Below are positions 14,541 to 19,875 of a stretch of DNA of 64,000 bases, in pieces. The notes below the pieces were generated by a model. The model worked only from the letters and a program-made list of their open reading frames with translations. It ran no database searches and was not told the DNA's origin. The stretch comes from Aggregatilineaceae bacterium (lineage in GTDB: Bacteria; Chloroflexota; Anaerolineae; Aggregatilineales; Aggregatilineaceae), in the NCBI GenBank assembly GCA_040767355.1, contig JAXGOS010000022.1, positions 16,148 through 80,147 on the forward strand. The letters are read 5' to 3'. Numbering within the stretch: the first letter of the stretch is position 1; the number at the start of each line of letters is the position of its first letter. A program made the translations under genes and the position numbers.

Positions 14541-15638
14541 TCACCAGACTTTCCACCACGGGCGGACATCCGGCTCGCCGCGTTTGGGCCTGACGTCGCC
14601 GGGGAGCGGGCCGAGCTTCGCGCCGCCTGGCTCCACGATCTTGAGCTGCTGGCTGCTCAGCGCGACGCCCCACAACAGTGCCCCGGTGAGCACCGTCTCG
14701 GCGGAAAATTCGGCGTTGACGACCACCGCGCCGGTCAGGTCCGCGCCGGTGAGGTTGGCGCCCACCAGCCGAGCCCCGGACAGGTTCGCCCCGCGCAGCG
14801 AAGCCCCGGCCAGGTCGGCGCGATTCAGCCGCGCGTCCGCCAGATCCGCCTCGCTGAGATCGGCCCCGGCCAGGGCCGCATTCGCCAGGTTAGCATGCGC
14901 CAGCCGCGCCCCGGCGAGGTTCGCGCCGGTGAGGTGCGCGCCGCGCAGATCGGCGTGGCCCAGGTCGGAGTCGCGCAGGTCGGCGCTGAGAAGGTCGGCC
15001 TCGGTGAGGATCGCGCCGCTCAGGTCCAGCCCAGTCAGGCTGACGTTGGGCAGCAGCGCCTGGTGGAGCGTGGCGCGGGCCAGGACGGCGGCTTTCATCC
15101 GCGCGCCGGTCAGGTTGGCGAGGGTGAGGTCCGCGCGGGAGAGGTCGGCGCGCTCGAGCACCGCCTCGCGCAGCTCCGCGCCGGAGAGATCCGCGCCGAC
15201 TGCCGCGCAGCCCGCCAGGTTGGCCTGGATCAGCCGCGCGCCCGCCATCTGGGCCCCGGTGAGCGTGGTGCGGGCCAGGGTGGCCTCGCCCAACTCAACG
15301 CGCCGCAGGTCCGCCCCGGTGAGATCGGCCCCGGTCAGGTCGGCCCGGACGAGGATCGCCTCGGACTGGCTGCCCTGTTCGTCGCGATAGCGACCGAGCA
15401 CCGCCCGAACGAGATTGGCTCCGCGCAGACTCGCGCCAGTCAGGTCCGCCCCGCTAAGCGCGGCTTCGGTCAGCACAGCGCCGTGCAGATCCGCCCCGAC
15501 CAGGATTGCGTTGCGCAGGTTGGCCGCCGCCAGGTCCATCCCCGCCAGGTCCATGCCCGACAGGTTCGCGCCCGACAGGTCGCGATCGCGTTCCAGGCGC
15601 GCCGTGATGGCGGCCCGCGTTAGCTGGATGCCCGTCAT
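14541..15638 (-). CDS. pentapeptide repeat protein (365 aa)
   Basis: Nearly the whole ORF is A(D/N)LxG-type pentapeptides (ANLSGMDLAGMDLAAANLRNAILVGADLHGA...) with one loop interruption, GRYRDEQGSQSE. GGAG RBS before ATG 15638. Confidence 0.9.
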   Translation of the reverse strand: MTGIQLTRAAITARLERDRDLSGANLSGMDLAGMDLAAANLRNAILVGADLHGAVLTEAALSGADLTGASLRGANLVRAVLGRYRDEQGSQSEAILVRADLTGADLTGADLRRVELGEATLARTTLTGAQMAGARLIQANLAGCAAVGADLSGAELREAVLERADLSRADLTLANLTGARMKAAVLARATLHQALLPNVSLTGLDLSGAILTEADLLSADLRDSDLGHADLRGAHLTGANLAGARLAHANLANAALAGADLSEADLADARLNRADLAGASLRGANLSGARLVGANLTGADLTGAVVVNAEFSAETVLTGALLWGVALSSQQLKIVEPGGAKLGPLPGDVRPKRGEPDVRPWWKVW

Positions 15639-15658
15639 GCGAGGCGCGCTCCGGTGAG

Positions 15659-15886
15659 TCAGTCCAAGGGTTGGAGCGTCCCGTCGTCGGCCAACTGCTG
15701 CACGCGCAGCTCCGCCGAATCGAGCATGGCGCCGCACAGGCGGGCCAGGTGCTGCCCGCGCTCGTACAGGGTGACGGATTCTTCCAGCGACAGCTCGCCG
15801 GATTCCAGCCGGTTGACGATGTCTTCCAGCTCGGCAAATGCCTGCTCGAAAGTCGGTTGGTCGGTGTTCATGTCATCGGTCGTCAT
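15659..15886 (-). CDS. xseB: exodeoxyribonuclease VII small subunit
   Basis: 75 aa. XseB signature FEQAFAELEDIVNRLESGELSLEESVTLYERG. GGAG RBS before ATG 15886. The listed ORF (to 16123) is an upstream extension overlapping the kinase gene. Confidence 0.85.
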   Translation of the reverse strand: MTTDDMNTDQPTFEQAFAELEDIVNRLESGELSLEESVTLYERGQHLARLCGAMLDSAELRVQQLADDGTLQPLD

Positions 15887-18651: not shown

Positions 18652-18654
18652 ATC

Positions 18655-19875
18655 CTAACCCCGTGGTTCGCTGTCGAGGGCGCGCTCGCGGACGGTGGCC
18701 GCCAGACGCCCATCGTGCAGAGCAATGTCGATCCGGGTGCCTTCGGCGGCGTCATGCGCGCTCGTGACACGATGCCCGTCCCCCGAGCGGGTGACGATCG
18801 CGTAGCCGCGCGCCAGCAGCGCGCTGGGATTGGCCGCGTCCAGCGCGCGAAGGCGGGCGTCCAGCCGGTCGCGCCGCCGGACCAGCGCGTGGCGCAGGTG
18901 TGTATCCATCCGGCTGGTGAGCTCGTCGATGCGTTGCCGCACGGTTTGAATGGCGACCCGCGGCGAAAGGCGGTCCATCAGGCGCAGGGTGGCGTCGAGC
19001 GCCTGGCGCTGCGCGACCAGCCGGTCGTTCATGGCGGCCAGCAGCCGGTCCGCGCGGGCGTCCAACTCCAGGCGCAGGGCGGCGCCGTCCGGCGTCACCA
19101 GCTCAGCCGCGGCGGAGGGCGTCGGGGCGCGCTCGTCGGCGGCGAAATCCACCAGCGTGAAGTCGATCTCGTGCCCGACGCCGGTCACGATCGGGATCTC
19201 GGACGCGGCCACGGCACGCACGACCGCCTCATCGTTGAAGCACCACAGGTCTTCCAGGCTGCCACCGCCACGCGCCAGCAGGATCACGTCGACCTGGCCG
19301 TAGGCGTTCAGGTGCTGGATGGCCTCGACGATCTGCGGCGGGGCGTCCTTGCCCTGGACGGGTGTCGGGCTGAGCACGATCTCGACCATCGGGAAGCGGC
19401 GGCGCAGCACATTCTGGATGTCCTGAAAGGCCGCCGTCGTGGGCGAGGTCACGATCCCGATCCGGCGCGGGAAGGCCGGGATCGGGCGCTTCAGCTCCGG
19501 CGCGAACAGCCCTTCAGCATCCAGGCGAGCCTTGAGCAGCTCGAACTGGCGGTTCAGCTCGCCGACGCCCGCCGGCTGGATCGCGTCGCAGTAGAGCTGG
19601 TACTGGCCGCGCGCCTCGTAGACGGTCACGCGCCCGTGGGCCAGCACTGCGTCGCCGTGCTGCGGCTCGAACGGCAGCCACGCCGCCTGCGTGCGCCACA
19701 TGACGCACGCCAGCTCGCTCTTGTCGTCCTTGAGCGTGAAGTACAGATGGCCGGACGCGGCACGCTTGAAATTGCTGATTTCGCCCTCGACCCACACATC
19801 CTGCAGGCGCGGCTCAAGCTCGAACAGGTCGCGGATGGTGACGGTGAGCTCGTAAACGGTGTAGGTGTCGGTCAT
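18655..19875 (-). CDS. xseA: exodeoxyribonuclease VII large subunit
   Basis: N-terminal OB fold (VWVEGEISNFKRAASGHLYFTLKD). Catalytic core ARGGGSLEDLWCFNDE. C-terminal coiled coil. Confidence 0.9.
   Translation of the reverse strand: MTDTYTVYELTVTIRDLFELEPRLQDVWVEGEISNFKRAASGHLYFTLKDDKSELACVMWRTQAAWLPFEPQHGDAVLAHGRVTVYEARGQYQLYCDAIQPAGVGELNRQFELLKARLDAEGLFAPELKRPIPAFPRRIGIVTSPTTAAFQDIQNVLRRRFPMVEIVLSPTPVQGKDAPPQIVEAIQHLNAYGQVDVILLARGGGSLEDLWCFNDEAVVRAVAASEIPIVTGVGHEIDFTLVDFAADERAPTPSAAAELVTPDGAALRLELDARADRLLAAMNDRLVAQRQALDATLRLMDRLSPRVAIQTVRQRIDELTSRMDTHLRHALVRRRDRLDARLRALDAANPSALLARGYAIVTRSGDGHRVTSAHDAAEGTRIDIALHDGRLAATVRERALDSEPRG

Follow-up and report, generated by a model that had tools for sequence, protein, structure and literature searches.

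How did a gene for a receptor-type serine/threonine kinase come to lie between the two genes that encode the subunits of a single nuclease, and does this position mean that the kinase controls the nuclease? The question is raised by a stretch of 64,000 nucleotides (nt) of DNA (the window; contig C15) from a metagenome-assembled genome of an uncultured member of the Anaerolineae (Chloroflexota; 4.06-Mb assembly, 84.5% complete), whose family is coded f1 here. Four genes follow one another on the minus strand of the window: xseA (18655..19875), the first gene in the string, which encodes the 406-residue large subunit of exonuclease VII (ExoVII); a gene for a 912-residue, bitopic, Hanks-type Ser/Thr receptor kinase (15913..18651); xseB (15659..15886), which encodes the 75-residue small subunit; and a gene for a 365-residue pentapeptide-repeat protein (PRP; 14541..15638). 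We show that the insertion of a kinase gene within xseAB is real and undescribed. The literature that we searched contains no description of the xseA-kinase-xseB layout and no operon that links either xse gene with a Ser/Thr kinase or a PRP, in line with the original prediction, made from the letters of the window, in which the arrangement was not known as a described system. We consider it rather more probable than any alternative that the kinase is a passenger, i.e. a receptor kinase that became fixed in the xseAB operon, is co-transcribed with it and serves its own pathway, and that the PRP gene is a lineage-specific addition at the 3′ end.

The four genes have the layout of a single operon: they lie on one strand, head to tail, with gaps of only 3 nt (xseA-kinase), 26 nt (kinase-xseB) and 20 nt (xseB-PRP), and the order xseA-kinase-xseB is conserved in relatives. 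The reading frames, the gaps and the operon-like packing agree with what the original prediction had read from the sequence. A GGAG motif is found 8 nt 5′ of the xseB ATG, and the PRP gene has a GGAG of its own, as had been noticed, 10 nt 5′ of its ATG; we place this ATG at 15638 because the orthologue in a sister species begins at the same residues. Upstream of xseA, a divergent intergenic region of 144 bp (19876..20019) separates the string from a conserved gene for a 114-residue protein, and this is the only non-coding space big enough for a promoter of the string. The promoter would thus be expected in this region; a consensus scan of this 68% G+C DNA found no sigma-70-like site in the 144 bp and called no terminator. 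The transcription unit might end at a GC-rich hairpin (CCCCGG-CAG-CCGGGG, 14496..14510, minus strand) about 30 nt past the PRP stop, although the hairpin lacks a T tract and the terminator scan did not call it. The G+C content is about 0.68 throughout the window, and that of the locus is the same as that of its flanks.

Both nuclease genes are assigned at the equivalog level. XseA scores 483.2 bits against TIGR00237 (cut-off 180) and matches PF13742 and PF02601 (Exonuc_VII_L plus OB fold), and XseB scores 78.7 bits against TIGR01280 (cut-off 35) and 77.4 bits against PF02609. The host genome has one copy of xseA, and the XseA sequences of f1 form one clade (support 100/99), which argues that the nuclease genes were inherited vertically. 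The XseA and XseB proteins of f1 have no added domain and carry only ordinary lineage substitutions (e.g. T147 and T362); when 17 XseA and 24 XseB sequences of the family were set against outgroups of 40 and 47, respectively, no family-specific phospho-acceptor or docking features came to light.

The kinase has the features of a complete receptor. The original prediction had described it as a 912-residue Hanks kinase with one transmembrane (TM) helix and a TPR-rich C-terminal part, and each element of this description was recovered: a PF00069 Pkinase match at residues 12-263 (183.7 bits; cut-off 31.7); the motifs GRGGMG, VAIK, HRD, DFG and SPE at residues 19, 38, 134, 154 and 180, which identify it as a Hanks kinase; a single hydrophobic segment at about 377-399; and TPR matches over 610-850. 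The protein is accordingly laid out as a cytoplasmic kinase domain (1-280), a Pro/Ala-rich linker, the TM helix, and, outside the cytoplasm, an alpha/beta subdomain that leads into a TPR superhelix (about 430-900). An AlphaFold2 model of residues 401-912, built with 23 homologues, has a predicted local distance difference test score (pLDDT) of 91.3 and comprises a small alpha/beta subdomain, for which we found no Pfam match, and then a long TPR superhelix, whose matches in the PDB are generic TPR superhelix proteins. The alignment of the 23 homologues shows no variation at Cys816 and Cys891; because of this invariant pair and the single TM helix, the ectodomain is probably a disulfide-stabilized extracytoplasmic sensor module. 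Of 26 related kinase domains, 25 keep the full set of catalytic motifs. A TIR-TPR protein encoded elsewhere in the window was considered as a relative of the ectodomain and set aside, as the two share only generic TPR similarity (E = 0.028).

Among known kinases, those of the PknB/Stk1 type come closest: they share the N-terminal cytoplasmic Hanks domain with its catalytic motifs, one TM helix and an extracytoplasmic sensor, and NF033483 is the best NCBIfam match. However, that match covers only residues 6-278 and reaches 290.6 bits against a cut-off of 450, and the kinase of the window contains no PASTA match, so that it does not belong to the PASTA kinase family; its sensor consists instead of the alpha/beta subdomain and the TPR superhelix with the conserved Cys pair.

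The synteny survey that the original prediction had called for was made by searching 40 relatives for the kinase, fetching up to 20 kb around each orthologue and mapping the genes of the window onto each stretch. Full-length orthologues with 44-85% identity were found in f1 and in three sister families. Of 24 f1 relatives, 22 have the kinase or its ectodomain immediately 5′ of xseB; the remaining two are G022, which has lost the kinase, and G024, in which xseB is at a contig edge. xseA lies upstream of the kinase in every f1 genome whose contig reaches that far, with a gap of at most 80 nt in 12 of 16 relatives and of about 150-470 nt in the other four. Two metagenome contigs (L182 and L185, for which precomputed gene calls were used) have the same order, with overlaps of 14 and 4 nt between the end of the kinase gene and the start of xseB. 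Because the order recurs in f1 relatives and in independent metagenome contigs, chance does not account for the arrangement.

The insert varies greatly in size. The ectodomain module of about 500 residues is present once per kinase in the window and in a few genera and twice in a single ORF (open reading frame) of about 1,400 residues in many relatives; three modules are present in one ORF of 1,928-1,966 residues in G017 (L023 4740-10568), G009 (L025 5728-11514) and G013 (L028 4302-10202), and each of these giant kinases retains one Hanks domain and one TM region. Some f1 loci contain a second complete kinase, the insert attains about 9.7 kb in relatives, and xseB is always kept at the 3′ end. 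Two-module kinases of about 1,400 residues are also common in metagenomes. In G013, the second kinase is separated from xseB by a gene for a protein phosphatase of the Y_phosphatase3 family (L028 13022-13744), the sole phosphatase gene seen in the block.

Outside f1, the two subunit genes are neighbors. At 11 loci from the same order, xseA and xseB are adjacent in 10 (families f2, f3, f4, f6 and f7), and in the eleventh (f8) neither gene was detected; at 40 loci from the class Anaerolineae, they are adjacent in 31 (three of these with gaps of about 600-700 nt), and in nine no xseA was found within 7 kb of xseB; and at 80 metagenome loci with XseA of 41-60% identity, they are adjacent in 33 and separated by 225-1,975 nt in six, with no xseB detected in 41. 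None of these 11, 40 and 80 loci has a kinase in the gap, which bears out the earlier remark that a kinase wedged between xseA and xseB is unusual. The survey upheld the gene order for the family and did not find it at these loci outside the family. The window shares with the canonical xseA-xseB operon of other Anaerolineae and of many Firmicutes and Actinobacteria the orthologous single-copy subunit genes, their order and their strand, and with sister families the flanks as well; it differs in the 2.7-kb kinase gene between the subunits and in the PRP gene, which is appended in three genera.

The flanks also indicate the direction of the change. The adjacent xseA-xseB pair of f6 is flanked by the same murJ, hyp114 (the gene for the conserved 114-residue protein) and fabI genes as the locus in f1, which points to insertion of the kinase into a pre-existing operon. 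The kinase orthologues of f2, f6 and f8 lie on contigs other than the one that carries xseB, and we found no consistent partner among the neighbors of the kinase orthologues in other families. The simplest history is a single translocation of an existing kinase gene into the junction of xseA and xseB in the ancestor of f1. A mobile element or a recent transfer was rejected as the source of the insert: no transposase or integrase gene is present, the G+C content matches that of the flanks, and the XseA clade is vertical.

Loss of the kinase has left the nuclease genes intact. In G022 (98% complete and of the same genus as G006), xseA and xseB are both intact and 218 nt apart, and the spacer between them (L088 4863-5079) is a scar of the kinase gene: it starts with the first 21 codons of the kinase (MSEEHALIAGRYRLDELIGRG, 63 nt) and ends with its last ~100-125 nt (about 30 codons). 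Alignment with the sister species G006 shows that 4.08 kb are missing and that the junction falls at a shared 9-nt microhomology, GGGCGCGGC. An assembly artefact was considered and rejected, as the microhomology is just 9 nt long and the kinase sequence is nowhere else in the assembly, where no orthologue of the kinase or of its ectodomain was found; 9 nt is too short for a misjoin by an assembler, and we therefore take the deletion as real. Unrelated genes fill the same gap elsewhere: a ybaK-like tRNA-editing gene in G052 (L055 about 7260-7800), a 98-residue GIY-YIG gene (L110 11337-11633) and a gene for a 616-residue protein without a Pfam match (L108 11221-13071). The loss in G022 and the unrelated passengers together imply that the ExoVII genes persist without the kinase and that the junction tolerates unrelated inserts. 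xse genes often share operons with unrelated housekeeping genes, among them nusB, folD, ispA and dxs.

The PRP gene at the end of the string has a patchy distribution. It follows xseB in four f1 genomes of three genera, i.e. in the window, in G001 (80% identity), in G017 (48%) and in G019, at a distance of 20 nt in the window and in G017 and of 22 nt in G001, and all the orthologues share the tail KRG..RPWWK(V/I)W. The copy in G019 (L037 about 10320-11100) is shorter and frameshifted, with its tail in another frame, and is either a pseudogene or an assembly error. The gene is absent from 17 f1 genomes in which the contig extends 1 kb or more past xseB (in several that were examined, the next gene converges) and from all the loci outside f1 in the same-order, class and metagenome samples. 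The host genome itself contains five PRP loci, four besides this one. A search for homologues was dominated by repeat-driven matches and gave no orthologue information, and because the XseA tree has no resolution inside f1, one gain followed by losses and several gains are both compatible with the distribution.

The protein matches PF00805 with 231.7 bits in 10 stretches, which identifies it as a PRP, a protein whose tandem A(D/N)LXX repeats form a quadrilateral beta-helix. In its AlphaFold2 model (pLDDT 76.7), some 62 pentapeptides wind into about 15 coils of a right-handed beta-helix, with one strand per five residues over 20-325. A helix caps the N-terminus, a single loop interrupts the coils at 81-94, and the C-terminal tail (KRG..RPWWKVW) is basic and aromatic; the net charge is −7 and the isoelectric point 5.35. 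The tail is disordered in the model (pLDDT below 50 over 329-349 and 360-365) and contains only a 4-residue, low-confidence helix, and no confident C-terminal dimerization helix is present. Of the structure that the original prediction had named, the right-handed beta-helix was recovered in the model. Known topoisomerase-protecting PRPs have about 180-220 residues and a C-terminal helix that mediates a tail-to-tail dimer; with 365 residues and no such helix, the PRP of the window does not resemble Qnr, MfpA or AlbG in these respects. The PRP shares with these three proteins the pentapeptide-repeat beta-helix, the mildly acidic character and one loop that interrupts the helix; but it is about twice as long, has only 20-22% identity to them in structural alignments, and stays below every family cut-off in NCBIfam (82.6 against 240 for Qnr, 90.2 against 360 for MfpA, and 60-74 against 425-500 for the Qnr subfamilies). 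By sequence, it ranks nearest to HetL (99.5 bits) and Np275/276 (78), ahead of MfpA (50), Qnr (36-44) and AlbG (22), and comparison of folds gives the same ranking; its closest counterparts are cyanobacterial PRPs. A DNA-mimic role is conceivable, though nothing in the protein points to it specifically.

Taken together, these results suggest the following scheme for a passenger kinase in the xseAB operon. An ancestral xseA-xseB operon of the Anaerolineae would have taken up a receptor-type Hanks kinase gene between its two genes in the ancestor of f1; a single transcript that starts in the 144-bp region 5′ of xseA would now cover the four genes of the string; and translation of xseB would ride on the kinase message through the short gap or, in some relatives, the overlapping stop and start. 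The kinase itself is predicted to be an active bitopic sensor, whose disulfide-stabilized TPR module may bind a ligand and which would serve its own pathway. Two things would keep it in place, namely the dependence of xseB on read-through and selection on the kinase itself; ExoVII would not need the kinase, and the PRP gene would have joined the 3′ end of the operon later, in some lineages only, and would be dispensable. Several observations weigh against this scheme. The gene order survives across about 20 genera despite rearranged flanks in G012, G015 and G009; it also survives the repeated tandem expansion of ectodomain modules and kinases, with xseB always at the end, and in some relatives the kinase stop and the xseB start overlap. 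A functional link would explain such persistence no less well than hitch-hiking does. Moreover, ExoVII is an XseA4·XseB24 complex, in which XseB is in six-fold excess (PMC10835039), and a place distal to a long membrane-protein gene is odd for a subunit that is needed in excess.

The strongest alternative is that the kinase is coupled to ExoVII: it would sense an envelope or extracellular cue, phosphorylate XseA, XseB or a partner and thereby tune the assembly or dissociation of XseA4·XseB24, and its position in the operon would secure co-expression. We regard this as unlikely, with perhaps one chance in several of being correct. The family-wide layout, which is stabler than its flanks and survives tandem expansion, the tight or overlapping spacing, the retention of catalytic motifs in the kinases, the phosphatase gene just before xseB in G013 and the requirement for XseB in six-fold excess (PMC10835039) would all be accommodated by such coupling. 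G022, in contrast, deleted its kinase and kept intact xseA and xseB; the kinase orthologues of sister families are unlinked to xse genes; neither subunit has acquired a domain or a striking family-specific Ser/Thr feature in f1; unrelated genes occupy the same gap elsewhere; and the literature searched holds no link between ExoVII and a Hanks kinase. Control of ExoVII by the kinase, as the original prediction had proposed, thus lacks positive evidence and is weakened by the deletion in G022. A precedent of a kind does exist, as YabT of Bacillus subtilis and RqkA of Deinococcus are membrane-anchored Hanks kinases that phosphorylate DNA-repair proteins; to our knowledge, neither is encoded inside a repair operon. 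We likewise know of no regulation of ExoVII beyond the substrate-induced dissociation of the complex. A bolder version, in which sensor kinases with TPR ectodomains are true partners of ExoVII that arose at least twice (the Hanks kinases of f1 being one case), convey an envelope or extracellular signal to phospho-control of the nuclease and are joined in a few genera by the long PRP, seems to us more doubtful still.

The two other explanations are improbable. The genes could be mere neighbors, with the kinase, xseB and PRP genes each expressed from its own promoter inside the upstream coding sequence and the packing without regulatory meaning: the xseA-kinase gap of about 150-470 nt in four relatives leaves room for a promoter, and no promoter or terminator can be called by consensus in this high-GC genome. 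Yet the gaps of 3, 26 and 20 nt in the window, the xseA-kinase gap of at most 80 nt in most relatives and the overlap of the kinase stop with the xseB start in the two metagenome contigs make this quite unlikely. We give marginally less credence again to the kinase-controlled topoisomerase-damage module that the original prediction had put forward, in which repair by ExoVII would be combined with protection of gyrase or topoisomerase IV by the PRP as a DNA mimic. The proposal has its attractions: ExoVII resolves quinolone-trapped gyrase complexes (PMC7929499); where present, the PRP gene begins no more than about 20 nt after xseB ends, and its conserved tail marks orthologues; and a beta-helix of about 15 coils is nearly as long as a dimer of MfpA or Qnr, with one loop and a net charge of −7. 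However, the gene occurs in only four f1 genomes, one of them with a frameshifted copy, and is missing from 17 others and from every locus outside the family; the protein reaches neither the Qnr and MfpA cut-offs nor that of any Qnr subfamily and is nearer to HetL and Np275/276 by sequence and fold; its 365 residues are far beyond the size of the known protectors, with no confident dimerization helix; and the genome has four further PRP loci.

What the locus offers depends on which reading is correct. Few bacterial enzymes are known to remove DNA-protein crosslinks, trapped gyrase included, and ExoVII is one of them; a receptor kinase that is kept in the xseAB operon across about 20 genera is a cheap and testable candidate for its post-translational control. 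Should the association turn out to be no more than a historical one, the locus would still illustrate cleanly how a passenger gene can become fixed between the genes for two subunits of a single enzyme, with tandem duplication enlarging it afterwards and a microhomology-mediated deletion removing it on one occasion. For annotation in general, the PRP advises caution, in that PRPs encoded next to other genes should not be read as gyrase protectors without evidence at the family level.

Some related kinase loci and the surroundings of the string deserve mention. A more distant tandem pair of TPR kinases (37% ectodomain identity) at L184 3326-9245 is followed by a metallophosphatase gene that overlaps the kinase stop, with no xse genes nearby. 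In f8, the kinase orthologue (L035 7461-14829 and L036 4636-12007) adjoins a gene for a 1,639-residue protein; a gene whose product has a UvrC-like N-terminus lies about 3 kb off with three genes between, and we judged this link to be coincidental. On the xseA side of the window, hyp114 (20020-20364, plus strand), which is divergent from xseA and has no Pfam match, adjoins xseA or fabI across f1 (43-83% identity) and is detectable in the sister families f6 and f7 (30-37%). On the other side, an alpha/beta hydrolase gene (13637-14446, plus strand) converges on the PRP gene; it has no counterpart at the same position in any relative, G001 of the same genus included, and looks like a recent, species-specific insertion. 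At this position, G001 has a 307-residue gene instead, on the strand opposite to the xse string, and look-alikes of that gene occupy the same spot in several other genera.

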